DNA of 32,454 nt from Candidatus Altarchaeum sp. (GTDB lineage: Archaea > Altiarchaeota > Altiarchaeia > Altiarchaeales > Altiarchaeaceae): the NCBI GenBank assembly GCA_018260615.1, contig JAGWDQ010000099.1, forward strand, positions 2,047-34,500. Direction: 5' to 3'. A program made the translations under genes and the position numbers. The first letter of the stretch is position 1; each line of letters starts with the position of its first letter. The notes under the pieces were generated by a model. The model did not search any database. It was given only the letters and a program-made list of their open reading frames with translations, and had not been told where the DNA came from. Positions 202 to 32,454 of this stretch are shown here, piece after piece.

Positions 202-1353
202 ATGAAACAACAATTAGGGCAATTTTTTACAACAAATTCGGACTTTATTTTGCAGGGATTGGAAAAATTTATTAAAAATGAAGAGGTTACAGACCCTTTT
301 GCAGGAAACTTGGATTTGATTAAGTGGGCAAAAAAGAATGGCGCTAAAAATGTTATAGGTTTTGACTGTGATAAAAAATATGCGAATAATGTTGGTGTTT
401 TTTATAATGATTCAATAAACTCCCCCAAAAAATATAAATTTGTCTGCACTAATCCACCTTATTTACATAAAAACAAAGCGGACAAAAAAACAAAAGAAAG
501 ATTTTTTTCCGGCGATTATTCTAATTTTGAAGATCTATACCAGGTCTCAATATTTTCAATTTTGAACTGCGAAAAAGGTATTTTAATTGTCCCGTTAAAT
601 TTTCTTTGTGCGGAAAATTCAAAAAAAATCAGAAATTTATTTTTTGATAAATTTAATATCGTAGAATTAAATATTTTTTCAGAACAGGTCTTTGAGGATA
701 CAACCTACAATGTAATATCTTTTTATTTTGAAAGAAAGAAAGATGATTTGGACAAAAATAAAATTTTCGCAACAATTTTTCCGGAAAAAAAGGAAATAAC
801 TTTCACAGTTGAAAAAAAATTTAACTGGCAATTAGGAGGAGATTTTATTGACAGGATTAAAAATACCAAAAACGATTTGGGGGTTTTCCGTCTAACTGAG
901 GACTATCTGCAATCTGGCGAATATGAGGTAGAAATGGCACTCCAAAATATTAAGGACAAAAAGACATTTCGCATCAGTCAGGACTTAAAGAAATTGCTGG
1001 AAAAGAATATTCTGTTTTTAAGGGCAATAGACAGCAAAAACGGAAAGAAAATTCAACTTGAAGACATAAGAAAATATGGAATTAACGGACTTGTCGGAAA
1101 AAAGACCTCACGAAATATGGCGTATTTGATTTTTAGAAAAGAAATATCGATTAACGAACAAATAGAATTAATGAAGAAATTTAATGACGAATTAAATCAA
1201 GAGAGAAACAAATATTTTTCATTTTTTTTAACTAATTTTAGAGACAATAACAGAAAAAGAATTTCTTTTGAAACGACCTATAAATTTTTAAATAAAATAT
1301 ATTATGAAAAAAATTCAAAACAATCTTCGCTATTTTGCACTATCCCGGAATAA
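202..1353 (+). CDS. N6-adenine (amino) DNA methyltransferase of a type II R-M pair
   Basis: LGQFFT (motif X), DPFAG (motif I) and TNPPY (motif IV); overlaps the downstream nuclease ORF. Confidence 0.85.
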   Translation: MKQQLGQFFTTNSDFILQGLEKFIKNEEVTDPFAGNLDLIKWAKKNGAKNVIGFDCDKKYANNVGVFYNDSINSPKKYKFVCTNPPYLHKNKADKKTKERFFSGDYSNFEDLYQVSIFSILNCEKGILIVPLNFLCAENSKKIRNLFFDKFNIVELNIFSEQVFEDTTYNVISFYFERKKDDLDKNKIFATIFPEKKEITFTVEKKFNWQLGGDFIDRIKNTKNDLGVFRLTEDYLQSGEYEVEMALQNIKDKKTFRISQDLKKLLEKNILFLRAIDSKNGKKIQLEDIRKYGINGLVGKKTSRNMAYLIFRKEISINEQIELMKKFNDELNQERNKYFSFFLTNFRDNNRKRISFETTYKFLNKIYYEKNSKQSSLFCTIPE

Positions 1354-2224
1354 TCAGGAAAAGATTTTGGACGATTTTTATGTTTTTGACGAAAAGCACC
1401 CGCAACTGCAGAAATATATTGCCAACACTAAAGAAATTAAAAATATCCTGATAACAATAAGGACATTACAAAAGAAAAAGGAGAACAAGAAAGTTATCGC
1501 AAAATATTTTTTGGAACTTTCCAAAATAATGGGAAAATTTTCTAACTGTTCGGAATTTGGTTGTTTTATAAATGCATGTGATAGCTTTTTGGATTTTGCT
1601 AAAAAAGATATTGTTTTGCTTGAAAAAATCGCAGAGAGGTATTTTGATAAAAGAATTTTAAATGAAGCGGTTCCTGAAGAATGGGTACAGGCGATTATAG
1701 ATTCAAATTCCGCCCGCAAGAAAGGAGAAGGTGGAGAAAATAAACTTTTGAATATTTTAGAAAAATACGGTTTTCAGGAAGTAAAAACATGGGAAGCGTT
1801 TTTTAATAAGCAAAAATGTGCGGCTAAATTTTCAAAAATTTTTAGTGTAACAAATGTCCGAAAAAATTTAAACATTGAATTAGCTACAAAGAAACAAAAT
1901 AAAAAACTGGACTTGATTATCAAATGTGGTAAAAATGTCTTTTTATGCGAAGCAAAGCACTTAAACACTTCCGGCGGCGCACAAAATAGCCAAATTTCTG
2001 AACTAATTGAAATTATTGGTCTGAAAGAAAAAAATAAAAATATTTCGTATATTGCATTTTTAGACGGAAGTTATTCAAATATTCTTTTAGGTGATGCAAT
2101 CGGAGGAGATAAATTGATGACACAAAAGAAAGAGATTGGGGAATGTTTAACTCGTAATCCCAGCAGTTTTTGGGTAAATACTACGGGTTTTAAATCATTG
2201 ATTTCAGATTTAAATCAAATTTAA
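1304..2224 (+). CDS. Putative type II restriction endonuclease (PD-(D/E)xK)
   Basis: LDLIIK...LCEAKH and SGGAQN motifs; 50-bp overlap with the MTase. Confidence 0.7.
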   Translation: MKKIQNNLRYFALSRNNQEKILDDFYVFDEKHPQLQKYIANTKEIKNILITIRTLQKKKENKKVIAKYFLELSKIMGKFSNCSEFGCFINACDSFLDFAKKDIVLLEKIAERYFDKRILNEAVPEEWVQAIIDSNSARKKGEGGENKLLNILEKYGFQEVKTWEAFFNKQKCAAKFSKIFSVTNVRKNLNIELATKKQNKKLDLIIKCGKNVFLCEAKHLNTSGGAQNSQISELIEIIGLKEKNKNISYIAFLDGSYSNILLGDAIGGDKLMTQKKEIGECLTRNPSSFWVNTTGFKSLISDLNQI

Positions 2225-2463
2225 ACAGGGATAAATTTATTATCGGACTTGCGGATGACAGCGAGGACTCAACTATGAAAAAAATTTCGGCGAGGGCAAA
2301 TTTGGACATAGTTAAAAAAGGCACGAATTTGGGAAATATGATGAGGGAAGGATGTAAGGCAGTGGGCGGTGAAGGAGGGGGGCACAGCATTGCGGCGGGG
2401 GCGAGAATTCCGAAGGAAAGCGTTGGGAAATTTCTGGAAATTCTGGATGGGGGGGAAATTTAG
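2224..2463 (+). pseudogene. 5'-truncated duplicate of the DHHA1 gene 3' end
   Basis: 2362-2463 matches 1-102 at 98/102 nt. The open frame NRDKFIIGLADDSEDSTMKKISARA... begins abruptly at the REase stop. Confidence 0.8.
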
Positions 2464-2610
2464 GTTATTATCTGTTTAAATTTCGTATAATAATTTGCAG
2501 CAGAAACAAAATATATCCGGGTTGTTATGGTTATTTGGAGAAAGCGAAATCACTTAAATTATTTAATTTAATATACCTCTATCTAAATTATTATTATTAA
2601 ATTTATTAAA

Positions 2611-3162
2611 ATGGATATATTAGTAATATTGTTGGTTGGATTGATAGTAATAGGAATATTGGTTGTTATTGTCTACAACAGCCTTGTATCTTTAAGAAAC
2701 ATAGTAAAAAACGCATGGTCACAGATAGATGTTCAATTAAAGCGAAGATATGATCTTATACCAAATCTTGTTGAAACGGTAAAGGGCTATGCAAAACACG
2801 AAAAAGGTGTTTTTGAAGAGGTTACAAAAGCAAGAGCAAATGCAATGAACGCGCAAGGGGTTGCGGGACATGCTGACGCAGAAAATATGCTTACCGGTGC
2901 TTTAAAAAGTTTGTTTGCTGTTGCAGAAGCATATCCTGATCTTAAAGCAAGTACGAATTTTATGCAGCTGCAGGAGGAACTATCGGGAACAGAGAGCAAA
3001 ATAGCTTATGCAAGACAATTTTACAATGATTCTGTAATGACCTACAACATAAAAATTCAGCAAGTTCCAAACAACGTAATTGCAGGAGTTTTTGGTTTTA
3101 AAGAAGAGGTGCTGTTTAAAACAGAAGGTGTTGAAAGAGAACCTGTTAAAGTTAGTTTCTAA
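2611..3162 (+). CDS. lemA: LemA family protein
   Basis: N-terminal TM helix; [36 protein letters not shown] and YPDLKAS.NF.QLQ motifs. Confidence 0.95.
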
Positions 3163-3352
3163 ATTGAATATCTCCCAAATGGGAAAAACAATGTGTTTTT
3201 AAATAACCCTATTATCATCCGGATATTTAAAATTTATAAAATTTTAAATAACAATACACAAACAACAACATGTAAATTTCTTCGGACATTTCTTTGAAAT
3301 GTTTTATATTCGGAACAATAACTAAAATTTTGATCTTACTTTAAATATTAAA

Positions 3353-4231
3353 ATGGAAATTTACAAACAGATAGAGGAAAACAAAAGAAACTCGTGGCTT
3401 TTGTCCATACTGTTTTTTGTGATAATGTTTATTTTAGGATCTATTATTAGTGAAATCATAGGACTCGGAACGAGGGGAACAATTTTTATAATGATTCTTA
3501 CCTTAATTTATACTGGTGCCATGTATTATTTTCTTGGAAATGAAATGATATTAAGTATAAATGGCGCGCATGAAGTAAAAAAAACCGACTATCTTTATCT
3601 TTTTAACACTGTTGAAGGTTTAAGTATCGCAGCGGGAATTCCGATGCCTAAAATTTATGTAATTAAAGATCCATCTCCTAATGCTTTCGCAACCGGCAGA
3701 GATCCGCAACACAGTTCAATTGCTGTAACAACCGGGCTTCTTGAAAAATTAAACCGACTTGAACTTGAAGGTGTTATTGCTCATGAACTTTCACATATAA
3801 AAAATTTTGATATAAGATACACTTTAATTGTAATTTCAATGATTGGTGCTATAGGAATTCTTGCAGGCGTTGCATCACGTATGGGGAGGTTTGGAAAAGG
3901 AATGGGAAAAGGAGGTAAGGGTGCAGGACCATTGATAATAATCGCTGTAATTCTCGGAATCGTTGCACCAATAGTTGCCCAACTGATTAAATATGCAATT
4001 TCAAGAAAAAGGGAATATCTGGCAGATGCCAGTGGTGCGCTTCTAACAAGATACCCAAAAGGACTTGCTGACGCACTTAGAAAAATATCCCTGGCAGAAC
4101 CGATGAAATCACCGGATAAAACATCAGCATCATTATATATTTCAAATCCGTTTGGAGAAAAATCACTGAATAATTTACTTAGTACACATCCACCTATAGA
4201 AGAAAGAATAAAAGCGCTTGAGAAAATGTAA
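3353..4231 (+). CDS. htpX: HtpX M48 zinc metalloprotease
   Basis: PNAFATG, AHELSH (HEXXH), SRKREYLADA and THPPIEERI motifs; follows lemA. Confidence 0.95.
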   Translation: MEIYKQIEENKRNSWLLSILFFVIMFILGSIISEIIGLGTRGTIFIMILTLIYTGAMYYFLGNEMILSINGAHEVKKTDYLYLFNTVEGLSIAAGIPMPKIYVIKDPSPNAFATGRDPQHSSIAVTTGLLEKLNRLELEGVIAHELSHIKNFDIRYTLIVISMIGAIGILAGVASRMGRFGKGMGKGGKGAGPLIIIAVILGIVAPIVAQLIKYAISRKREYLADASGALLTRYPKGLADALRKISLAEPMKSPDKTSASLYISNPFGEKSLNNLLSTHPPIEERIKALEKM

Positions 4232-4381
4232 AACCATCGCTTGAAAAATTAGTAATTTTTTGCGATTATAACAATGCAGCCCAATATTAGTTTTTGTCCT
4301 TTTACGAGTTATACGAGTAAATATCCGAACGAAGTGAGGTTATGTTTACAGGTCAATTAGGCGTGAAAATTGAATTATTTA

Positions 4382-4689
4382 GTGTCCATCCATAAACTCA
4401 CAATTTTTGTCATTTAGGAGCAAAGCGACTAAATATCCGAACGAAGTGAGGTTATTTTCAAAATCGCAAAGATTTTGAAAATATGAGAGCGAAGCGAACT
4501 TATTTACGAACGAAGTGAGGATAAAAACATAATAATTACTGAAAATCTTTGGATTTTCAATCTTACAAAATCTATAAAATTTTGTAATTACTCTGAAAAA
4601 GTTAAAATTTTTTCAGTCTACAAGCGTAAGCTTGGAGATATTCGGAAACTCAAAGTTTCAGATAAATCATATACTTTGTGGATGAACAC
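4382..4689. mobile_element. 308-bp MITE-like element carrying hairpin modules
   Basis: Imperfect TIRs TAGTGTCCATCCATAAACT (4380-4398) and ACTTTGTGGATGAACACTA (4673-4691), 16/19; flanked by direct repeat TATTTA (4376-4381, 4690-4695); non-coding. Confidence 0.6.
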
Positions 4690-4842
4690 TATTTAGCATA
4701 TCAACACAATATTTACGGATTTATCATGTCCTCAGTCCATATGGAACCTGCCCAATAAAACGAAATAAATTTTTCAAAAAGTAAAACTTGAAATTAATGA
4801 AAGAAAATTTTAAATTTTGACCAATTAAATGACTATTGAAAA

Positions 4843-5394
4843 ATGACTATTGAAATATTTAAGAATTGGATAAATGTATTAATCAAACCAAAAGAGGTAT
4901 TTGCACAGGAAAAGGGAAATGCAAGTTTAGGCAAAGCAATAAAAATAATTTTGATTGCAGGACTTATTGCAGGTACTTTTCATCTGGTTGCGTCGTTTAT
5001 TTTATTTGATGTTTTCTCTTTTTATAGTATGGGCATTATATTTGCTCCGATTTGGCTTTTAATAACATCCGGAATATATTATATATTTGCAAAATTGCTT
5101 AAAGGTAAAGGAAATTTCACAACACAAACATACCTTGCTGCATTGGTTTCTGCTCCGTGTATGCTAATATCAGCAGCAATAAGCATATTTCCTTTTATTG
5201 GAGCAATTATTATATTTCCCGTATTTTATGAATTATATCTTTTAACATTAGCATTAAGAGAAGTACATCAATACTCAACAGCAAGAGCTATTCTTTCATG
5301 GCTAATTCCTATGCTTATAATAATAATTGTTGTGATTATTGTACTTGTTGTTGTGTTTATGTCCATAATATCATCTAGGAATCCAAATATTTAA
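4843..5394 (+). CDS. Yip1-domain membrane protein
   Basis: W.NVL.KPKEVF..EK..ASLGKA start, multiple TM helices, YELYLL.LALREVHQYS..RAI ending. Confidence 0.8.
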   Translation: MTIEIFKNWINVLIKPKEVFAQEKGNASLGKAIKIILIAGLIAGTFHLVASFILFDVFSFYSMGIIFAPIWLLITSGIYYIFAKLLKGKGNFTTQTYLAALVSAPCMLISAAISIFPFIGAIIIFPVFYELYLLTLALREVHQYSTARAILSWLIPMLIIIIVVIIVLVVVFMSIISSRNPNI

Positions 5395-6338: not shown

Positions 6339-7808
6339 TTATTCAATCTCAACCTCAACACTCATAAAAACAGGCCCCTTCAAAACAATTCTTTTATTTT
6401 CATTACTTATAAACCTTTTTGCCCTTCCTTTAATCATTATATTTACATCGGAAGGACTTTTAGCCATCTTGATTTCAAAGGTAAATTTTCCCTTCTGTCC
6501 TTCTTTAACGTTGTTCTCAATCTCTTTCGCAAAATAATTTGAAATTGCATACAGGAAATTTAAATTTGCCTTTATTCCTTTTTCTTTTATATTCTTTCCT
6601 TCTTCCCCGAATTTTTCAATATCCCCGGGAATTCCATATATATTTCCATCCAGAACATAAATTTCATTCAGTGCCGCCGGACCCAGCAAATTTTTATTTT
6701 CTTCGTCCTCAAATACAGAAATTTTAATCCTGCGATTCATTAAATTTCCTTCAAAACACAAAAATTTACAGGGTGATTTTTCATCAGCATGAATTTTTGC
6801 CGTCTCATAAATTTTGCCGGCAATATTTATTCCTTCAGCTGTTTCCGGAACAGATAGCAGACCTATTGATTTGGCAATTTCTTGAGCGCTTAAATGCACA
6901 TCTTCATAAAACTGAGGATATAAGACCTTTCGGACATCACCGATATTGTTCCTGACCATCAAAATTCTTTCAAGTCCGAAGCCGATGTTAAAAACATCCA
7001 CATCATCCGGAATATTGTAATTTTTCAAAGCCGTTCTTGAATACATTCCGCAGTCGGCAATTTCTATGCCTCCTGAAAAAATTTCATACTCTTTATCCTG
7101 CACATAATAATTTGATGTCGCCTTCTTTTTGGTAAAAATAATATTCGCAAAACCCATCTCATTTAAAATTTTCTCTGCAACACTCATTCCGTCTTCAATC
7201 TTTAAATTTTTGTCAACGAGCATGCAGGATGCCCCGTAATGTGCCCTTAAATGTGTCGCATCTTGTTTTTGCTCTCTCCTGAATCTTAATCCGATGGAAA
7301 AAAATTTTAACGGCAATTCCGCCTGTTTTTCCATCTCCGCTTCAAGTGTCAGAAACCACGCAGCCGTCATGTGAGAACGAAGGGTTGTTCTACTGCATAC
7401 CGGTTCAATATTTTTAAATGCGGGAAATAAATCAAGGATTTCCATTGCCTGCGTTGCGTTAATTTTCAGGTTTTTAATCATTTCTTCAAGCATATTGTCT
7501 CCTTCAATAACACCTTCCCGGTAATTCCGCAAAATTTTCTTAAATTTATCCGTGCTTATGTATGGAGCAATTTTTTTTATTTTTGTAATATCATCATCAC
7601 TCATTCCTATATCCGGCCTCGGAAGTCCGCCGAGATAAAAGACCCTGTCAAGGATTACAGGTGCTTCTTTTCCATACTGCTTATATACATCCTCTTCCTG
7701 AATAAACACAGGATTTTCAATCTCATCAAAACCAATACTGAGGAAAATTTCCCTTGTTTTTTGTATGAGCGTGTGGATTGTATGTGCTTTGCCTTGCGTT
7801 GTTTGCAT
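6339..7808 (-). CDS. sepS: O-phosphoseryl-tRNA(Cys) synthetase (SepRS), N-terminally short form
   Basis: GKAH..H.LI...RE.FL..GF.E..NP, LDRVFYLGGLPRPDIG, TLRSHMT..WF, FRREQKQDATHL and GFGLER motifs; C-terminal ENKKLLGPA-like anticodon domain. Confidence 0.9.
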   Translation of the reverse strand: MQTTQGKAHTIHTLIQKTREIFLSIGFDEIENPVFIQEEDVYKQYGKEAPVILDRVFYLGGLPRPDIGMSDDDITKIKKIAPYISTDKFKKILRNYREGVIEGDNMLEEMIKNLKINATQAMEILDLFPAFKNIEPVCSRTTLRSHMTAAWFLTLEAEMEKQAELPLKFFSIGLRFRREQKQDATHLRAHYGASCMLVDKNLKIEDGMSVAEKILNEMGFANIIFTKKKATSNYYVQDKEYEIFSGGIEIADCGMYSRTALKNYNIPDDVDVFNIGFGLERILMVRNNIGDVRKVLYPQFYEDVHLSAQEIAKSIGLLSVPETAEGINIAGKIYETAKIHADEKSPCKFLCFEGNLMNRRIKISVFEDEENKNLLGPAALNEIYVLDGNIYGIPGDIEKFGEEGKNIKEKGIKANLNFLYAISNYFAKEIENNVKEGQKGKFTFEIKMAKSPSDVNIMIKGRAKRFISNENKRIVLKGPVFMSVEVEIE

Positions 7809-24941: not shown

Positions 24942-25019
24942 TGAGTGAAATTTAGGACTGAAATTTAATTTATTTTGAATTTTAAATTTAATTATGTATT
25001 CTATATAAAATTTTTCATA

Positions 25020-26225
25020 ATGGACAATAAAAAAGAAAACGAGCAAAGCGAGCACAACAACCGGAAAAGAAATCTGTATCTCGTATCAGTATTCGGTCCC
25101 GACAGGACAGGAATATGCAGGGAATTTTCAGGAATTTTTGCGAGGCGAAATTTAAACATAATTGATGTTGAGGCGATAGCGATGCGAGGATATTTTATAA
25201 TGCCTTTTCTCGTTGATTTCGGAAAGGAAGATAAAAAGAAATTTAAGGAAATTGAAAAGGAATTAAAAGAAACAGCGTTGCGGCTGAATATTACAATAAA
25301 AATTGAAGAGTATAAGGAAGAAAAGAAGGAAAAGAAGATAATTTACATTTCAACAATAGGAAAAGACAAGCCGGGAATAATTTACGGATTCACATCTTTA
25401 TTTGCGGGTTTAAATTTAAATGTTGAACGGATGAAGACAATTGGAAGGGAAGACCTCGCGGTTACGGAATATCGTCTGGATATCGGAGTTCAGAAAATTT
25501 CAGACATACGGAAAAAAATTTATGAAAAGGCGGGTGAAATCGGCGTAGATGTAATTGTTCGCGACAGGAATACTTATGAAAGGACAAAGAAATTAGTTGT
25601 TTTTGACCTGGACGGGACACTGATAGACAAAGAAATTATTGATGAAATTGCAAAATTCGCAAATGTTGAAGATGAGGTTAAAGCAATAACAAAGGATGCG
25701 ATGGAGGGAAAGATTGAATTTAAAAAAGCAATAAAAGAGAGAGTAAATTTGTTTAAAGGAATGGATGTAAAAATTTTGGAAGATATGGCAAAGGAACTTG
25801 AATTTACACCGGAGGCAAAGGAACTGATTTACCGGCTAAAGGAACTGAATTACAAGCTCGCTATAATAAGCGGTGCATTTACGATTTTTACAGACGCATT
25901 GAAGGAAAAGTATCCCGTTGATTATGTTTACGGAAATAAGCTTGAGATTAAGGATGGAAAACTGACCGGAAATTTAGAGGGAAGGATTATAGACGCTTAC
26001 GGAAAAGCCAGAATAATGAAGGATATTGCAAAGAAGGAAGGAATTAGCGTAAGCGATGTTATTGCAGTGGGTGACGGGGCAAATGACAGGATAATGATTA
26101 AAAAGGCGGGGCTTGGAATTGCATTAAATCCGAAAAAAATTTTAAAGAAATTTTCGGATGGGGTAATAAGCAGGAATGCGATGAAGGATTTGATTATGTG
26201 CATTGATAAAGAGAAGGGGTTTTAA
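25020..26225 (+). CDS. serB: Phosphoserine phosphatase with two ACT domains
   Basis: G.DRTGI and GKDKPGI ACT motifs; FDLDGTLI, ISGAF, K and GDGAND HAD motifs; start set at MDNKK. Confidence 0.92.
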   Translation: MDNKKENEQSEHNNRKRNLYLVSVFGPDRTGICREFSGIFARRNLNIIDVEAIAMRGYFIMPFLVDFGKEDKKKFKEIEKELKETALRLNITIKIEEYKEEKKEKKIIYISTIGKDKPGIIYGFTSLFAGLNLNVERMKTIGREDLAVTEYRLDIGVQKISDIRKKIYEKAGEIGVDVIVRDRNTYERTKKLVVFDLDGTLIDKEIIDEIAKFANVEDEVKAITKDAMEGKIEFKKAIKERVNLFKGMDVKILEDMAKELEFTPEAKELIYRLKELNYKLAIISGAFTIFTDALKEKYPVDYVYGNKLEIKDGKLTGNLEGRIIDAYGKARIMKDIAKKEGISVSDVIAVGDGANDRIMIKKAGLGIALNPKKILKKFSDGVISRNAMKDLIMCIDKEKGF

Positions 26226-26232
26226 ATTTAAA

Positions 26233-26367
26233 ATGGGATTAAAATTTTTTATAGCGTATGAAAAAACAGCCGGGAATCATATTGCAGAAAATCTAAAAGA
26301 ATCTCTTGAAAGGTATGAACAATCAGGGTATGTTAAAGAAGCATTTATGGCGCCTCGTACTATATAA
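26233..26367 (+). pseudogene. 44-codon TIR-like N-terminal fragment
   Basis: MGLKFFIAYEKTAGNHIAENLKESLERYEQSGYVKEAFMAPRTI* resembles the TIR betaA-alphaA-betaB pattern (FISY...A..L...L...VF.D..I). Confidence 0.45.
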
Positions 26368-26443
26368 GCGAACACTTTTTGTTAATTATTTAATTATTAT
26401 ATGTAATTATATATTCTTTTTGTTTTTAAAAAATTTAAATAAA

Positions 26444-26614
26444 ATGAAAATGAAAAAAGAAGAGAAAGAGAAAAAAAGAGAAATTTCCCTAACTCTTGAA
26501 GAGGTGTGGAAAATAATAGACGACAATAAAGAAGAAATTGAGGAAGAAATTAGAAAAGAGGAAGAAAATGAGATAGAAACAGCTCAATATTGTAGAACTT
26601 ATGTAATTAGGTAG
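26444..26614 (+). CDS. 56-aa acidic small protein
   Basis: ATG after an A-rich leader; the longer ORF-track start runs through the TIR fragment and AT-rich spacer. Confidence 0.5.
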   Translation: MKMKKEEKEKKREISLTLEEVWKIIDDNKEEIEEEIRKEEENEIETAQYCRTYVIR

Positions 26615-26742
26615 GTTGTTTTATAAGAGTAACAACATTTTTTTATAAAACAATTTATTTTTTTCATTTTTTCTTTATATTTTCCTGTTGGTAATTATTA
26701 TTTTATGAAAGTGTATATGTCTATCAACTTTATAATAATAAA

Positions 26743-28206
26743 ATGGTAACTTTTGATAGTGTCTTATTCCCGGACAAAGGAAGAAACAGAAAATTATATC
26801 TATCGTTTCTGCATACAGAGAGTGAAGTTATTAAGGCATTTGAAGATGTGTTTCCTTATAAAGAATCGTCTGTAATGAATGAAATAAAAAGAAGAATCTC
26901 ACCTTCTTTTTTTGAAAATATTAGGACATTTATTCTTGAATATCCTTACACGGAAAAAGAATGGAGGGAAATATATAATCTTCATTATGGCAAAACCATG
27001 TATGAAAACACATCACCGTTTGTGTTTAGACTTCATCTGTTAACCGGAAAAATAAACACATTAGATGATATATCTCAAGATTCATATTTGGGGTATGTAA
27101 CAATAAGACCGCTACCTATAAATTTTATTTCAAAGATAGTTTTGAAACCAAAAAAAGAACTTTATAATGTTGGTCCAGACGAACAAATATATATGATTCT
27201 GATAGACCAGAAAATACATCTAGGACACAAAGAAATAGAAATTAGTACATTTCCGTTCTTTGCTCAGGATTCCATGGTTACTGTTTGTGCACATGCAGAT
27301 ATATTAATGATTGCAAATATAATGCACAAAAAGTATGGGTGGGAAGAAATAACCGTTGAAAAACTTGTTTTGGGGTTGCCGCCCATATATCCTTCTGGAA
27401 GGGGGTTGCCATCATATGACGGATTAACTCCTGATCAAATAGGATCTTTTCTACAGACAAAGCAATGGTACAGCAGGATTAAAGGTTTTAGGAAAACTGA
27501 CAATGCCAAAGAGGCAGAAAATACAGTTTTAGAAATTTTAAAATATATTGATTCCAGAATAGAAAGTGCGATACCATGTATTTTAAGTTTTCAGCATCAT
27601 GTGTCAATTATTTGTGGACATACAATGAAAGACGATGTAAAGAACGGATATATTGTTTTTGACGACTCCGGATACCATATAAACGAATATCTTAAAAAGA
27701 CAGAGGACGATAAAAATAAAAATCTATGGTTCGCCACCAAAATATCTCTTGAAAGATTGAAAGAAAGATTGAAAGAAAAAATCATGGGGGAAAGCATACT
27801 TCTTTTATATCCTGAATTTGAAAGGGAATATTTCCCACTTTCAAGTGTGTTGAGATGCGTTCTACAAATTCAAGAACATATATCACGGACATATAAAATT
27901 CAAAAAGAAGAAATAGATCATAGGATACTTATAATAGACAGTAAAAAATTGAAAAAGGAGTTGTGGAATAAAGGTATTCACGAGTTTGATGAATTGTCCA
28001 TTCCTCATTATGTTTGGTATATAGAGTTTAGTAAGAAAGGCAACCCTTATGAATTGTTAGGATGCATATTAATTGATGCGTCTGCTCATAAAAATGATAG
28101 TAAATATTCCTATATATCGTACGAAAAAAACGGGAGCAGGTTACTATTTTTTAAGCAGAATATTCCCAAACCAAATAATATAATTTCCGTGTTATCTCCT
28201 TGTTAA
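26743..28206 (+). CDS. Papain-like (C39-like) cysteine protease domain protein
   Basis: FFAQDSMVTVCAHA (Q...C), GLT.DQ, ES.IPCIL...HVSIICGH (His), VFDD (Asp); N-terminal LEYPY and YLGYVTIRP blocks. Confidence 0.6.
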   Translation: MVTFDSVLFPDKGRNRKLYLSFLHTESEVIKAFEDVFPYKESSVMNEIKRRISPSFFENIRTFILEYPYTEKEWREIYNLHYGKTMYENTSPFVFRLHLLTGKINTLDDISQDSYLGYVTIRPLPINFISKIVLKPKKELYNVGPDEQIYMILIDQKIHLGHKEIEISTFPFFAQDSMVTVCAHADILMIANIMHKKYGWEEITVEKLVLGLPPIYPSGRGLPSYDGLTPDQIGSFLQTKQWYSRIKGFRKTDNAKEAENTVLEILKYIDSRIESAIPCILSFQHHVSIICGHTMKDDVKNGYIVFDDSGYHINEYLKKTEDDKNKNLWFATKISLERLKERLKEKIMGESILLLYPEFEREYFPLSSVLRCVLQIQEHISRTYKIQKEEIDHRILIIDSKKLKKELWNKGIHEFDELSIPHYVWYIEFSKKGNPYELLGCILIDASAHKNDSKYSYISYEKNGSRLLFFKQNIPKPNNIISVLSPC

Positions 28207-28348
28207 AATATCTTCAAGAGGATAAAAAAGTTACCTGTTTTTTCACAAGTATTTTCATATAATTTATACTTTTCTCATTTGGTGACACTTATAGGGCTTT
28301 AAATTTAAAATAGAAGTATAAAAACTTAATAATTGTTAAATTCATAAC

Positions 28349-30511
28349 ATGGAAAAATTTCTCATTTATGCAGATATTTTGGGATTTGAAGAATTAGCAA
28401 AGGAAATTGAAATTAATGAAAATATACCGTCACTTAAAGTAAGAGACGAAATTTTAAAAGAACCGGTAAAGACAGAACTTGAGAGATTAAAAAAAGAAGG
28501 TAAAATTTATGGATATGAAAAAGGCAGCGATAATTGGATTTTGGTTTTGAAAGAATTTGATTTTATATTTGAAGTTGTTTCAAGAGTTTTGAAAATTGAA
28601 ATGCCTGTTGGAAAACATGCAGCTAAATTAACAAAAGATTATGAAAACATTCCTCTTGAAATTGCAATAGGTTGCTACGGGTTTGATAAGTGGGCTGAGT
28701 TAGAAGGAGATAAAATCTCGTGCAATGACAAAGTTATAAAATTTCTTAAAACATATATTATTCCGATATATTCCAACACTTATAAAAAAGAAAATTCATT
28801 TGAAATAGGGAAATGGGACTTCTCAAAAGAACATTTGAAAAAGGAGTTCTTAAATAAAGGAATTTCATTGACGGAATGTTTAATTGAAGAAGAAATTAAA
28901 GATGAGAGGTGGAAGGTGATTGATAAGCTGAATAAATACATAATTGAAAAAGATAGAAGTTCCTTTAAGGTCTATAAGATACTAACAGAATCTTTTGTTA
29001 TATGCACAAATCATTTTTTTGAAGAATTAAAAAACAATAGTAATGAAAAATATTTTGTTGAGAATGAGTTTACATACACTAATAAAAAAACAAAGAAGGA
29101 TGAAAAGTATTACTTACTCAAGAAAGAAAATGTTATTAAAGAAGGAAAAATTCCAGATTTTCTTAATAAAATCGGGCAGCAATCAAAAAGCGATTTTTCA
29201 GGAGCATTAATTGATAGAATATTTGTTCCCCCCGATGAATATGATGAAATAAAGAAATCCTTAAAGGATAAAGGAATTGTTTTTATAACCGGAACTGCAG
29301 GATACGGAAAAACATATCTGGCAATAAGATTGCTCTGGGAAAAATATGATGATGAGGGGTATATTCCAGGATGGATTTCCGGAAAGGAGAAAGATGAAAG
29401 AAAAGATGTCAGAAAAAGGTTGACAGATATTGAGGCGGAATTAAAGCCAAAGCATATAATCTATTTTGAAGATCCTTTTGGAAAGGTTGAATACGAAAAA
29501 AGAGATGATTTAGAGGAGAACATAAGAGGAATTATTGACAGTGTAAAAAATAAAAGGGATTGTTTTGCAATAATAACATCAAGAAAGGATGTTTTTGAAA
29601 AATTTAAAAAGGAAAGTTTTTCGGCTGCTAAAGAGATAGAGGCGATTGAAAAAGAATTAAACATAATAAAACCATCTTATAGTGATGAAAAAAGAAAGAA
29701 AATTCTTGAAAAATGGGCGGAAGAGAAAGGATGCAAATGGTTATCAAACGAAAAATTAAAGGAAATTATTTTTAATTCAATTAATGATGAAAGCAAATTG
29801 CCATCACCTTTGGCAATTTATAATTTTGTTGTGGCAACAAAAAATGAAACAAATAAAAATACAATAAGGCAAAAAATAGATGAGTATTCCAAAGAACTTC
29901 CGGAAGTATTTGCAAAAGAAATTATAGAATTATCCAAATCTGGGAGGAAAGACAGGATGCGGTTTTTGTCTTTTATTTTTGTTTCTGAAAATTTTGAAAA
30001 GAAATTTGTTAAGCAGGAATATGAAAAATTAAAAGAAGAAAATTTTGAGGATTTTGAAAAAATTTTGAAAGAAGAATACAGAGTTAAAGAAGAAGAATTG
30101 TTTAAGAAAAGAGTATTGAATTTTTCTCATCCGTCATATTCTCAAGCAATTCCCTATGTTCTTGAAGATGTAGTATGTAGAAAGATATTTTGTAATGTTT
30201 TAAAAGAATTGGCAGAAAAGGACTCTGCTGCCGGAGATGTTGCACGGGCAGTTGCTGAAAATTTTGAAAAACTTCCTGATGATGTGAGAAACCTGCTTTT
30301 TGAATTGGCAAAAAAGGACTCTGCTGCTTGGGATGTTGCATGGGCGGTTGCAAATAATTTTGAAAAACTTCCTGATGATGTGAGAAATTTGCTTTTTACG
30401 GATAAAGTTCAGAAAGGGCTTAAAGAAATTATTGAAAAATTTTCAAATAGTGGATTTAAATGGAATAAAGAAAAGGCCGAAAAATTTAAAAAATTTCTAA
30501 AAAATGAATAA
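28349..30511 (+). CDS. Cyclase-like domain + nSTAND3-like P-loop NTPase + helical repeats
   Basis: YADILGF...GSDN...LEIAIG; Walker A GTAGYGKT; Walker B IYFEDPFG; IITSR; C-terminal 32-aa repeats. Confidence 0.75.
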   Translation: MEKFLIYADILGFEELAKEIEINENIPSLKVRDEILKEPVKTELERLKKEGKIYGYEKGSDNWILVLKEFDFIFEVVSRVLKIEMPVGKHAAKLTKDYENIPLEIAIGCYGFDKWAELEGDKISCNDKVIKFLKTYIIPIYSNTYKKENSFEIGKWDFSKEHLKKEFLNKGISLTECLIEEEIKDERWKVIDKLNKYIIEKDRSSFKVYKILTESFVICTNHFFEELKNNSNEKYFVENEFTYTNKKTKKDEKYYLLKKENVIKEGKIPDFLNKIGQQSKSDFSGALIDRIFVPPDEYDEIKKSLKDKGIVFITGTAGYGKTYLAIRLLWEKYDDEGYIPGWISGKEKDERKDVRKRLTDIEAELKPKHIIYFEDPFGKVEYEKRDDLEENIRGIIDSVKNKRDCFAIITSRKDVFEKFKKESFSAAKEIEAIEKELNIIKPSYSDEKRKKILEKWAEEKGCKWLSNEKLKEIIFNSINDESKLPSPLAIYNFVVATKNETNKNTIRQKIDEYSKELPEVFAKEIIELSKSGRKDRMRFLSFIFVSENFEKKFVKQEYEKLKEENFEDFEKILKEEYRVKEEELFKKRVLNFSHPSYSQAIPYVLEDVVCRKIFCNVLKELAEKDSAAGDVARAVAENFEKLPDDVRNLLFELAKKDSAAWDVAWAVANNFEKLPDDVRNLLFTDKVQKGLKEIIEKFSNSGFKWNKEKAEKFKKFLKNE

Positions 30512-30541
30512 AATTATTAACAAAAATTATAACAAAATATT

Positions 30542-32454
30542 ATGAAAAAATTTCTCATTTATGTGGATATTTTGGGATTTAAAAATTTACCAGAGGAAAT
30601 TGCAAAAAATACTAAATTTTATGAAGATACAATAACGGAAAACTTTTTCACAAAACCCTTTAGGAAAAGAATAGATGAAATTACCAAAGAAGAAAACATA
30701 AAACTAACAAATGGGAAAAGTGAAATTGAGGGATCTAAAGGTTCTGATAATTATGTTTTGTTTGTTAATGATATTGACAGAGTTTTTGAAATTTTACACA
30801 AAATCTCAACAATAAAAATACCCCATGAGGACTACGGATATATTCAGATGGAAATTGCTGTAGGTGTAAAAGAGATTGATGAGAGCGAGGATATTGAAGA
30901 TTGGATAAACCGCAAAAAGACAAAACAGTTTCTTCACGAGGATATAATAAATCCATACAAAAAATACAAAAAAGAGAAAGATGGAAAATCAACAGAAGAA
31001 ACATTTATTGTCATCACTAATGACTTTTATAATGAACTTGAAAATTTTAATAAAAAGAAATTTTGCGAAGAGATAAATTATAAAGAAAAGCATTTTTATT
31101 ATGTAAAGAAAGAATTAATTGAAAGAGAAGAAAAGATTTCGGATTTTCTTAAAGAAATTAGGCAATCAAGAAGTGATTTTTCTGGTGCATTAATTGATAG
31201 AATATTTGTCAAACCGGATGAATATGATGAAATAAAGAAATCCTTAAAAAATAACAGGATTGTTTTTATAACAGGAACGGCAGGATACGGAAAAACATAT
31301 CTCGCAATAAAATTGCTCTGGGAAAAATATGATGATGAAGGATATATTCCAAGATGGATTTCTATTGGCAGTGGAAGTGAAAAAGAAATAACCGAAGTAG
31401 CGAAAGAACTTATAGATATTGAGAAACATTTAAAGCCAAAGCACATAATTTATTTTGAAGATCCTTTTGGAAAAACAAAAACAGTATATGAAAGAAGAGA
31501 TGTTTTAAGAGAAAGGATAAAGGCCATAATAAATTCTGTAAAGAACACAAAGGATTGTTATGTTATTATAACTTCAAGAAAGGATGTTTTTGAAAAATTT
31601 AAGGAAGAAAGTTATTCTATTGAAGAAATTGAAAAATTTGAAAAAGAGTTAAACATTATGGCGCCGTCTTATAGTTATGATAAAAGAAAGGAAATTCTTG
31701 AAAAATGGGCGGAAGAGAAAGGATGTAAATGGTTGAAGGATGAAAAATTAAGAAACATCGTCTTTGATTTTATTGGAGATAAAGGAAAATTACCGGTGCC
31801 CCATAATATTCATGATTTTGTTGAAGCCACAATAGAAATAAATGATGAAACAGAATTAAGGAAAAAGATAAAAGTATATTCTCAAGAAGGTGAAAAAGCA
31901 TTTGCAGATGAAATTACAGGACTATATAAATCTGATAGGAAAGACAGGATGCTGTTTTTGTCTTTTATCCTTGTTTCTGAAAATTTTGAAAAGGAATTTA
32001 TCAAGCAGGAGTATGAAAATCTGAAAGAAGAAAATTTTGAGGATTTTGAAAAGATTTTAAAAGAAGAATACAGAGTTATACCTACTATTTGGGGAGTTGG
32101 TGAGAAAGAAATATTGAAATTTGCTCATCCGTCATATTCTCAAGCAATTCCCTATGTTCTTGAAGATGTAGTATGTAGAAAGATATTTTGTAATGTTTTA
32201 AAAGAATTGGCAGAAAAGGACTCTGCTGCCGGATATGTTGCATGGACGATTGCTAATAATTTTGAAAAACTTCCCGAAGATGTGAGAAACCTGCTTTTTA
32301 AATTGGCAGAAAAGGACTCTGCTGTCAGAGGTGTTGCACAGGCGATTGCTGAAAATTTTGAAAAACTTCCTGATGATGTGAGAAACAAACTGCTTTTTGA
32401 ATTGGCAGAAAAGGACTCTGCTGCCGAAGATGTTGCATGGGCGATTGCTGAAAA
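30542..32454 (+). CDS. Second cyclase-like/STAND/repeat paralog, runs off the window end (absent from the ORF track)
   Basis: Manual translation MKKFLIYVDILGF...KGSDNY...MEIAVG...GTAGYGKT...YFEDPFG; I found no stop to the window end. Confidence 0.8.
   Translation, partial: MKKFLIYVDILGFKNLPEEIAKNTKFYEDTITENFFTKPFRKRIDEITKEENIKLTNGKSEIEGSKGSDNYVLFVNDIDRVFEILHKISTIKIPHEDYGYIQMEIAVGVKEIDESEDIEDWINRKKTKQFLHEDIINPYKKYKKEKDGKSTEETFIVITNDFYNELENFNKKKFCEEINYKEKHFYYVKKELIEREEKISDFLKEIRQSRSDFSGALIDRIFVKPDEYDEIKKSLKNNRIVFITGTAGYGKTYLAIKLLWEKYDDEGYIPRWISIGSGSEKEITEVAKELIDIEKHLKPKHIIYFEDPFGKTKTVYERRDVLRERIKAIINSVKNTKDCYVIITSRKDVFEKFKEESYSIEEIEKFEKELNIMAPSYSYDKRKEILEKWAEEKGCKWLKDEKLRNIVFDFIGDKGKLPVPHNIHDFVEATIEINDETELRKKIKVYSQEGEKAFADEITGLYKSDRKDRMLFLSFILVSENFEKEFIKQEYENLKEENFEDFEKILKEEYRVIPTIWGVGEKEILKFAHPSYSQAIPYVLEDVVCRKIFCNVLKELAEKDSAAGYVAWTIANNFEKLPEDVRNLLFKLAEKDSAVRGVAQAIAENFEKLPDDVRNKLLFELAEKDSAAEDVAWAIAE
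32219..32454 (+). repeat. 96-99 bp coding repeats (32-33 aa)
   Basis: GACTCTGCTG at 32219, 32315 and 32414; the same unit occurs at 30221 and 30317. Confidence 0.9.

Follow-up and report, generated by a model that had tools for sequence, protein, structure and literature searches.

Two tandem STAND genes with a predicted cyclase-fold N-terminal domain in Candidatus Altarchaeum: a candidate antiviral sensor family of archaea

Introduction

Sensors of the signal transduction ATPases with numerous domains (STAND) and nucleotide-binding leucine-rich repeat (NLR) types represent a logic of innate immunity that is shared by animals, plants, and bacteria, and the effectors of the known prokaryotic STAND proteins are mostly nucleases, NADases, and proteases. 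Here, two tandem STAND genes are described from the right end of a 32,454-nt stretch of a Candidatus Altarchaeum sp. genome (the window, G000:C99:2047-34500, which ends at the contig end; the genome, G000, is 87% complete). Each gene encodes a protein in which a predicted nucleotidyl-cyclase fold precedes the NTPase and a set of helical repeats. The favored reading, held with moderate confidence, is that these are two self-contained genes of the NLR and antiviral STAND (Avs) kind, with a cyclase-fold effector that is switched on when a foreign protein is sensed.

Several described systems share parts of this design. Avs5 (AVAST type 5) carries the NTPase domain nSTAND3, PF20720 (10.1101/2025.07.08.663546), and resembles the genes described here in consisting of a single gene with an N-terminal enzymatic effector, nSTAND3, and a C-terminal alpha-helical repeat sensor; however, its effector is SIR2 rather than a cyclase fold, its sensor is built from TPR/Sel1/PPR repeats rather than 32-aa HEAT-like units, and the hosts of the present genes are mostly archaea. 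Pycsar cyclases (PycC) are alike in their class III cyclase fold and, presumably, in their antiviral setting, whereas they stand alone next to a gene for an effector that reads the cyclic nucleotide, and the domain described here is fused to a STAND protein and has no detectable sequence similarity to them. Mycobacterial class III cyclases of the Rv0386/Rv1358/Rv2488c type, in which cyclase, ATPase, TPR, and LuxR helix-turn-helix (HTH) parts follow one another, likewise place a cyclase, a STAND-type NTPase, and helical repeats in this order on a single chain; these are regarded as regulators and have a canonical PF00211 cyclase, an NTPase from another clade of STAND proteins, and a DNA-binding domain at the C-terminus, whereas here PF00211 fails, the NTPase is nSTAND3, and there is no HTH. 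Finally, cyclic nucleoside monophosphate (cNMP) cyclase domains are effector or signal-generating parts of NTPase-centered bacterial conflict systems such as the VMAP ternary systems and occasionally occur with iSTAND2 (Kaur et al. 2020/2021; PMC7159879, PMC8195603). In them, as in the favored reading here, a cyclase domain supplies the effector or signaling part of NTP-dependent conflict machinery, but they are multi-gene and bacterial, with a recognizable cyclase that is infrequently attached to STAND, in contrast to the single gene, divergent fold, and obligate nSTAND3 fusion seen here.

Domain architecture of the STAND paralogs

Both large proteins at the end of the window, P0002 (paralog 1) and P0003 (paralog 2), consist of a cyclase-fold domain, an nSTAND3 NTPase, a helical region, and 32-aa HEAT-like repeats, to which paralog 1 adds a C-terminal cap (Table 1). 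The nSTAND3 assignment is well above the Pfam threshold (72.3 and 80.9 bits; cut-off, 27.2), and paralog 1 has intact Walker A (GTAGYGKT) and Walker B (IIYFEDP) motifs; G320, K321, T322, E374, and D375 were invariant in 25 aligned sequences. The repeat unit follows the scaffold (E/K)LAEKDSAA..VA...(A/V).NF(E/D)KLP(D/E)DVRNLLF, with variation concentrated at unit positions 9-11 and 14-15, and homologs with longer arrays match the HEAT_2, HEAT, and HEAT_PBS profiles. The tripartite single-protein plan of the Avs type, namely an N-terminal effector, a STAND NTPase, and C-terminal repeats, is therefore present, with the effector part recognized by its predicted fold. An earlier note on the window, made from the letters alone, had proposed the STAND NTPase and an NLR/Avs-like layout ending in C-terminal repeats, and both proposals are borne out by the nSTAND3 matches and by the 96-nt tandem repeats found by Tandem Repeats Finder (TRF) after that domain.

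The paralogs are 67% identical from residue 214 (paralog 1) and 153 (paralog 2) onward, but over the first 150 residues the identity drops to ~28%. For the P0003 N-domain, the nearest relatives are P0028 and P0027 (50% and 46%), whereas for its NTPase they are P0008 and P0002 (75% and 74%); because the two parts have different nearest relatives, the STAND genes are mosaics. The same 32-aa repeat (50-60% identity) was also observed in three tandem genes elsewhere in the genome (locus L037, G000:C101:11500-17000; ORFs 517-1668(-), 1796-3661(-), and 3684-4889(-)), two of which also contain TFIIB cyclin repeats in the same protein (E 3e-24 and 7e-29), so that STAND and TFB-like proteins have this repeat module in common.

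Predicted fold of the N-terminal domain

Residues 1-212 of P0003 were modeled with AlphaFold2 from 25 homologs (predicted local distance difference test, pLDDT, 84.9; predicted template modeling score, pTM, 0.83), and the model was compared with known structures. Class III cyclases occupied the top 13 VIA matches, with Z from 13.5 to 11.1, root-mean-square deviations (rmsd) of 2.9-4.5 Å, and 152-172 residues aligned. They were led by Rv1900c of M. tuberculosis (Z 13.5; rmsd 2.9 Å; 152 residues) and included soluble guanylate cyclase (Z 12.8); the Pycsar uridylate and cytidylate cyclases 8jsz, 7r65, and 8jsf gave Z 11.8, 11.1, and 10.5, a Cas10 palm domain gave Z 11.1, and GGDEF domains scored lower (Z ≤9.6). 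Foldseek agreed on the class III cyclase fold (E 1e-5). By this model, the N-terminal domain is a class III nucleotidyl-cyclase fold, with the palm-like beta-alpha-alpha-beta-beta-alpha-beta order of the cyclase homology domain, and the cyclase named in the earlier note was thus right at the level of the fold.

Class III cyclases require dimerization for activity, and their substrate-specifying residues sit on the partner subunit; their hallmarks are two metal-binding aspartates, one in the F-x-D-x-x-G-F motif of strand beta1 and one in the G-D motif between beta2 and beta3, and a transition-state Asn and Arg. Among 84 divergent members of the present family, the conserved polar residues are D9 (98%), R32 (98%), D61 (98%), E104 (95%), K134 (88%), and Y141 (88%). 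D9 lies in a Y-x-D-I-L-G-F motif at the end of strand beta1 and was paired by hhalign with the first metal-binding aspartate of FIDLRGFT, although weakly; the comparison, with L040, the single canonical cyclase that the phylum yielded, covered 15 columns around the beta1 motif at E 0.076. Searches with PF00211 of five genomes that carry the family gave no usable reference cyclase. D61 (D69 in P0003) is placed by the model immediately before strand beta3, in the putative position of the cyclase G-D aspartate, where the usual GD reads SD.

All six of these residues are retained in paralog 1. Paralog 2 retains D9, D69, and E104, with T32, Q102, and H132 replacing the family R, P, and K; having lost two of those six residues, it may function more weakly or in a regulatory role. 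By analogy with the C1 and C2 domains of mammalian cyclases, the tandem pair might act as an asymmetric heterodimer; a predicted homodimer of two N-domain copies scored 0.02 against a mark of 0.42, a result that is uninformative as to pairing. The cyclase-fold domain of paralog 1 also contains an insertion of ~70 aa (window 28796-29000; P0002 residues ~150-220) that is common to P0008-P0010 and absent in paralog 2 and most of the family.

The same residues bear on the possibility that the cyclase fold is catalytically dead and serves as a nucleotide-binding or oligomerization/adaptor module that recruits an unlinked effector. Retention of the putative metal-binding aspartate pair together with R32 and E104 in 95-98% of the 84 members would be difficult to account for if the domain had no activity that depends on a nucleotide or a metal, and paralog 1 keeps the whole conserved set. 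A dead domain is therefore considered improbable, even though the alignment has no conserved Asn...Arg pair in helix alpha4, so that the transition-state pair was not located, the GD motif is altered, paralog 2 lacks R32 and the K at position 132, and inactive cNMP-cyclase domains have been reported in other conflict systems (PMC7159879).

Distribution and neighborhood of the family

A profile of the N-domain recovered 303 representatives (50% identity clusters; E ≤1e-3) from among 1.84 billion proteins, and nSTAND3 directly followed the cyclase-fold domain in all 32 members checked (24/24 homologs and 8/8 long members). The archaeal hosts belong to Hydrothermarchaeota, Methanobacteriota, Argoarchaeum, ANME-1, Bathyarchaeia, and Halobacteria, and the bacterial hosts to Dehalococcoidia/Chloroflexota and Zixibacteria. 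Within the phylum of the window, the gene was found in 3 of 61 genomes (G000, G007, and G057), and two of three genomes of the same genus lack it. The cyclase-fold-nSTAND3 fusion is a conserved family that is patchily distributed in archaea and a few bacterial phyla.

When the neighbors were compared all-against-all over 16 genome loci, no gene family occurred in more than three loci, and the one that reached three comprised DNA methyltransferases; no conserved effector gene was present beside the family members in these loci. The family moves as a single gene without a conserved partner. Two variants of the gene were also observed. In a Hydrothermarchaeota locus (L018:9327-13215), it is split into 627 aa and 208 aa of repeats and is flanked by two inverted universal-stress-protein genes, and in G057 (L046/L049, G057:C300:8590-8790) an 86-aa ORF that matches cyclase-fold residues 3-70, ~1.5 kb upstream of the full-length gene, may be what is left of a second tandem copy.

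Antiviral reading, proposed mechanism, and possible output

By raw count, restriction-modification (RM) genes accompany the family gene in four loci: directly beside it lie enzymes of Type ISP in L019 and of Type IIG in L020 (the locus of the Methanobacterium protein P0029) and a Type I HsdR/HsdS pair in L053, and HsdM lies ~9 kb away in L017. In the PADLOC 2.0 library, which dates from 2023, the STAND proteins match PDC-S73 (E 1e-9 to 1e-11), mad8, and SspF, in each case over the NTPase core only, in line with the earlier note, which knew of no named system with this combination. A 2026 survey distinguished 589 STAND clades and at least 90 defense families, and its main text does not mention cyclases (PMC13581612). 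No description of a cyclase-fold-nSTAND3 fusion was found in the literature, which included the main text of that survey. The cyclase-fold STAND family is real and conserved and is apparently an undescribed variant of the antiviral-STAND theme; its N-terminal domain is unannotated in the domain and defense libraries searched because it is invisible to sequence profiles.

In the mechanism proposed here by analogy with Avs proteins, the repeat surface, with its variable residues 9-11 and 14-15, would bind a foreign and probably viral protein, and binding would free the NTPase to bind NTP and oligomerize. Oligomerization would in turn pair the N-terminal cyclase-fold domains in the way that class III cyclases require; because such cyclases are active only as dimers, induced proximity would be a natural switch. 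The two conserved aspartates, together with R32, E104, and K134, would then turn over nucleoside triphosphates, and it is the conservation of this D/D/R/E/K set that argues for nucleotide chemistry. The output of the cyclase-fold STAND would be either a cyclic nucleotide messenger for an unlinked receptor or a consumption of NTPs that arrests the infected cell.

A number of observations weigh against this reading. The first 210-280 residues of both proteins have no Pfam match (including PF00211) at E ≤10, no NCBIfam match, and no PADLOC match, and PDB profile searches with N-domain profiles of 25 and 84 sequences returned no cyclase. Because no sequence method ties the N-domain to cyclases, the assignment rests on the predicted fold, and the transition-state pair expected of that fold was not located, as described above. 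The two repeats of paralog 1 would make for a short sensor. Neither STAND paralog is matched by an Avs model of PADLOC, which also sets them apart from Avs5, and the RM neighbors are a raw count. Finally, unlike in Pycsar, no conserved effector gene accompanies the family in the 16 loci and the 87% complete G000 yielded no protein with the cNMP-binding domain PF00027, so that a signaling output would lack a visible receiver; nor was a canonical cyclase (PF00211) found in that genome. In the same PDB profile searches, matches to 8etq, aspartokinase, and leucine-rich repeats were rejected as coiled or low-complexity noise.

Some of these observations also suit a housekeeping role, in which the proteins would be signal-transduction STANDs like MalT or the mycobacterial cyclase-ATPase-TPR-HTH proteins, with a cellular ligand on the repeats, a regulatory cyclic nucleotide as the product, and no virus involved. 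The order of cyclase, STAND, and repeats does occur in non-defense regulators, and both the lack of a conserved effector gene and the restriction of the PADLOC matches to the NTPase core agree with such a role. It is nevertheless regarded as unlikely: with neither PF00211 nor PF00027 proteins found in G000 there is no visible cNMP regulon, the family occurs very patchily, also among genomes of the genus, the genes lie in a low-GC insert at a site that holds a PARIS-like pair in a relative (described below), RM genes are neighbors in four loci, the N-domain and NTPase have mosaic histories, and the proteins have no DNA-binding output domain.

If the antiviral-sensor reading is right, a cyclase-fold effector would extend the range of STAND effectors by a nucleotide-converting output. 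It is conceivable, although doubtful, that this is the first archaeal-centered NLR/Avs family with a built-in cyclase effector, acting through a messenger for an unlinked receptor or through NTP consumption that requires no receptor, in which case this type of fold would have a new immune use. The family would offer a handle on antiviral sensing in archaea, in which few STAND systems have been studied, and raises the question of what role a cyclase plays in a single-gene system without a receptor.

The adjacent protease and peptide form a separate module

Upstream of the STAND genes, and in the same orientation, are a small acidic peptide gene and a gene for a 487-aa protein, P0001. The model of P0001 (pLDDT 87) has a papain-like core at residues ~131-362, and its VIA matches include Mug105/ZUFSP (Z 11.8), UfSP2 (11.7), UfSP1 (11.3), Alr0975 (11.2), and a C39 double-glycine peptidase (10.5); the alignment to UfSP/ZUFSP spans residues 120-362, and the Foldseek E is 3e-4. 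In 27 protease sequences, C182, H286, and D307/D308 never vary, and Q175 is kept in at least 90%. P0001 is thus predicted to have a papain-like cysteine peptidase fold with a Cys/His/Asp set and to represent an unnamed family. It shares with UfSP/ZUFSP (C78) and C39 peptidases the papain-like fold and the Gln...Cys...His...Asp set, but it differs from them in scoring below the Pfam cut-off for Peptidase_C78 (15.7-17.6 bits; cut-off, 29.1), in having extra N- and C-terminal domains, and in its partner, which is a small acidic peptide without Gly-Gly instead of a ubiquitin-like or ABC-transporter partner.

Four more copies of the protease occur in G000 (contigs C80, C100, C53, and C21; 35-45% BLASTP identity), none of them near a STAND gene, and G000, with its five copies, is the only one of the 61 genomes of the phylum to carry the protease. 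An acidic peptide gene lies upstream of the protease in three of the four readable copies in G000 (the window, C80, and C53, but not C100), and these peptides end in ...ETAQYCRTYVIR, ...ETAKYARNYLVH, and ...AECWTRAATYYVF. In the distant homologs L031-L033, an ORF of 52-60 aa is located directly downstream instead and ends in ...GMVYWINT, ...GLVYLINT, and ...SMIFRVK. Because small peptide genes adjoin other copies of the protease, the peptide belongs with the protease and not with the STAND module. Protease and small peptide form a separate two-gene module. As an observation on this family, a protease without a Pfam model is almost always found beside a gene for a 50-60-aa acidic peptide that ends in a short hydrophobic strand.

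The earlier note had read the TIR-like fragment, the peptide, the protease, and the STAND genes as a single locus, and had itself named a failure of protease and STAND genes to co-occur elsewhere as evidence to the contrary. In such a multi-gene immune system, the protease might, for example, process the STAND proteins or be activated by them. The genes are indeed adjacent and co-oriented within one low-GC insert, and a pairing of protease and STAND is known elsewhere from Avs2-trypsin (10.64898/2026.08.25.746987). However, protease homologs were absent from all STAND loci examined (16 genome loci, G007, G057, and L051-L053), and no STAND gene was present in seven protease loci; G007 and G057, the two other STAND-carrying genomes of the phylum, have no protease, and the four paralogs in G000 occur in unrelated contexts. 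Between the protease and STAND 1 there is also a spacer of 142 nt, which contains a T-run and an AT-rich segment resembling a TATA box. Since there is no co-occurrence in other loci, protease and STAND do not constitute one system, and the multi-gene interpretation is regarded as highly improbable. Of the earlier claim for the papain-like protease, the fold holds and the membership in a STAND system does not. The locus model is corrected accordingly: the protease is not a partner of the STAND genes, which represent a single-gene module, duplicated here, and not part of a four-gene system.

Gene order and borders of the insert

Five ORFs on the plus strand follow a serB-like gene, all in the same orientation and all at the coordinates given in the earlier note, among them the two paralogs with effector-NTPase-repeat architecture (Table 1).

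Table 1. Features at the right end of the window and related loci in this and other genomes.
Feature	Coordinates	Strand	Basis or remarks
serB-like gene, ACT + HAD domains	24975-26225		Pfam scan
44-aa ORF, possible stub of a TIR-domain N-terminus	26233..26367	+	translation
56-aa acidic peptide gene, paired with protease	26444..26614	+	
487-aa papain-like cysteine peptidase P0001 (predicted fold), UfSP/ZUFSP/C39-like	26743..28206	+	
STAND paralog 1 (P0002), 720 aa, complete	28349..30511	+	
Cyclase-fold N-domain, paralog 1	28349..29194	+	residues 1-282; fold inferred from the model of the paralog 2 domain
nSTAND3 NTPase core, paralog 1	29222..29713	+	PF20720 E 4.6e-20, residues 292-455
Two 96-nt (32-aa) HEAT-like repeats, paralog 1	30206..30397	+	TRF period 96, 2.0 copies, 88% matches
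STAND paralog 2 (P0003), at least 637 aa, interrupted by contig end	30542..32454	+	
Cyclase-fold N-domain, paralog 2	30542..31177	+	residues 1-212; model m91780cd629e2
nSTAND3 NTPase core, paralog 2	31205..31705	+	PF20720 E 1.1e-22, residues 222-388
96-nt repeats, paralog 2, running off contig end	32205..32454	+	TRF period 96, 2.6 copies
Protease-peptide pairs	window 26444-28206; G000:C80:34261-36149; G000:C53:43051-44800; L031:1553-3057; L032:6001-7485; L033:6001-7572		
PARIS-like pair of G007	L061 (G007:C138:5300-8387), ORFs 1606-2448 and 2451-3086	-	AriA interrupted by contig end

The GC content is 0.28-0.29 across the last 4 kb of the window, compared with 0.35-0.37 a few kb upstream, and nucleotide similarity to two genomes of the same genus ends at ~26230, ~130 nt past serB. 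In these relatives, serB is followed by other genes: directly by SepRS in G008 (L060, G008:C27), and by DUF4435 and AAA_15 genes in G007, which PADLOC identifies as AriB (E 1e-12) and AriA (E 2e-23). The site after serB thus differs between genomes of the genus, and in one relative a known defense system, the PARIS-like pair, is located there. In G000, SepRS was observed ~17 kb upstream on the opposite strand (window 6339-7808(-)), with a DHH gene and a 389-aa ORF likewise inverted; because SepRS follows serB in G008 but is displaced and inverted here, the insert is located at a rearrangement breakpoint.

Beyond the contig end, the end of contig C2 (minus strand, G000:C2:15582-16049(-)) encodes four more repeats and a C-terminal tail that matches the P0002 tail almost completely; the next gene is hisF (His_biosynth, E 4e-83). 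By sequence, this fragment is probably the missing C-terminus of P0003, and the 96-nt repeats probably caused the assembly to break at this point; it could instead be a third paralog, and the join of C99 to C2 is unconfirmed by synteny, with the same-genus genomes rearranged downstream of serB. Because the probable continuation runs into hisF, no receptor gene would follow P0003, and the expectation that a receptor lies beyond the window finds no support there or in a conserved neighbor at the 16 loci. A sigma-70 promoter scan gave 32 sites versus 29.6 in shuffled sequence, using a bacterial model that is not applicable to an archaeon.

The 44-aa ORF at the left edge of the insert had been regarded as a TIR-like fragment, a claim that fares poorly. 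The ORF has no Pfam match at E ≤1, and its similarity to the N-terminus of a TIR_2-TPR protein in the same genome (C137; tblastn, 44% identity over 39 aa) is weak, at E 0.04. Its 44 residues correspond to no more than the first strand and helix of such a TIR_2 protein, short of a full TIR fold with the catalytic Glu. A complete TIR gene disrupted by a frameshift was considered and discarded, as no TIR-like continuation was found in any frame. The ORF is at best a TIR remnant, judging from this alignment, and is probably a non-functional marker of the left edge of the low-GC insert. Two TIR_2-TPR proteins, whose N-termini the ORF resembles, were observed in G000, one of 509 aa (C137:9475-11004(-); TIR_2 E 2e-19) and one of 476 aa (C35:2852-4282(+)).

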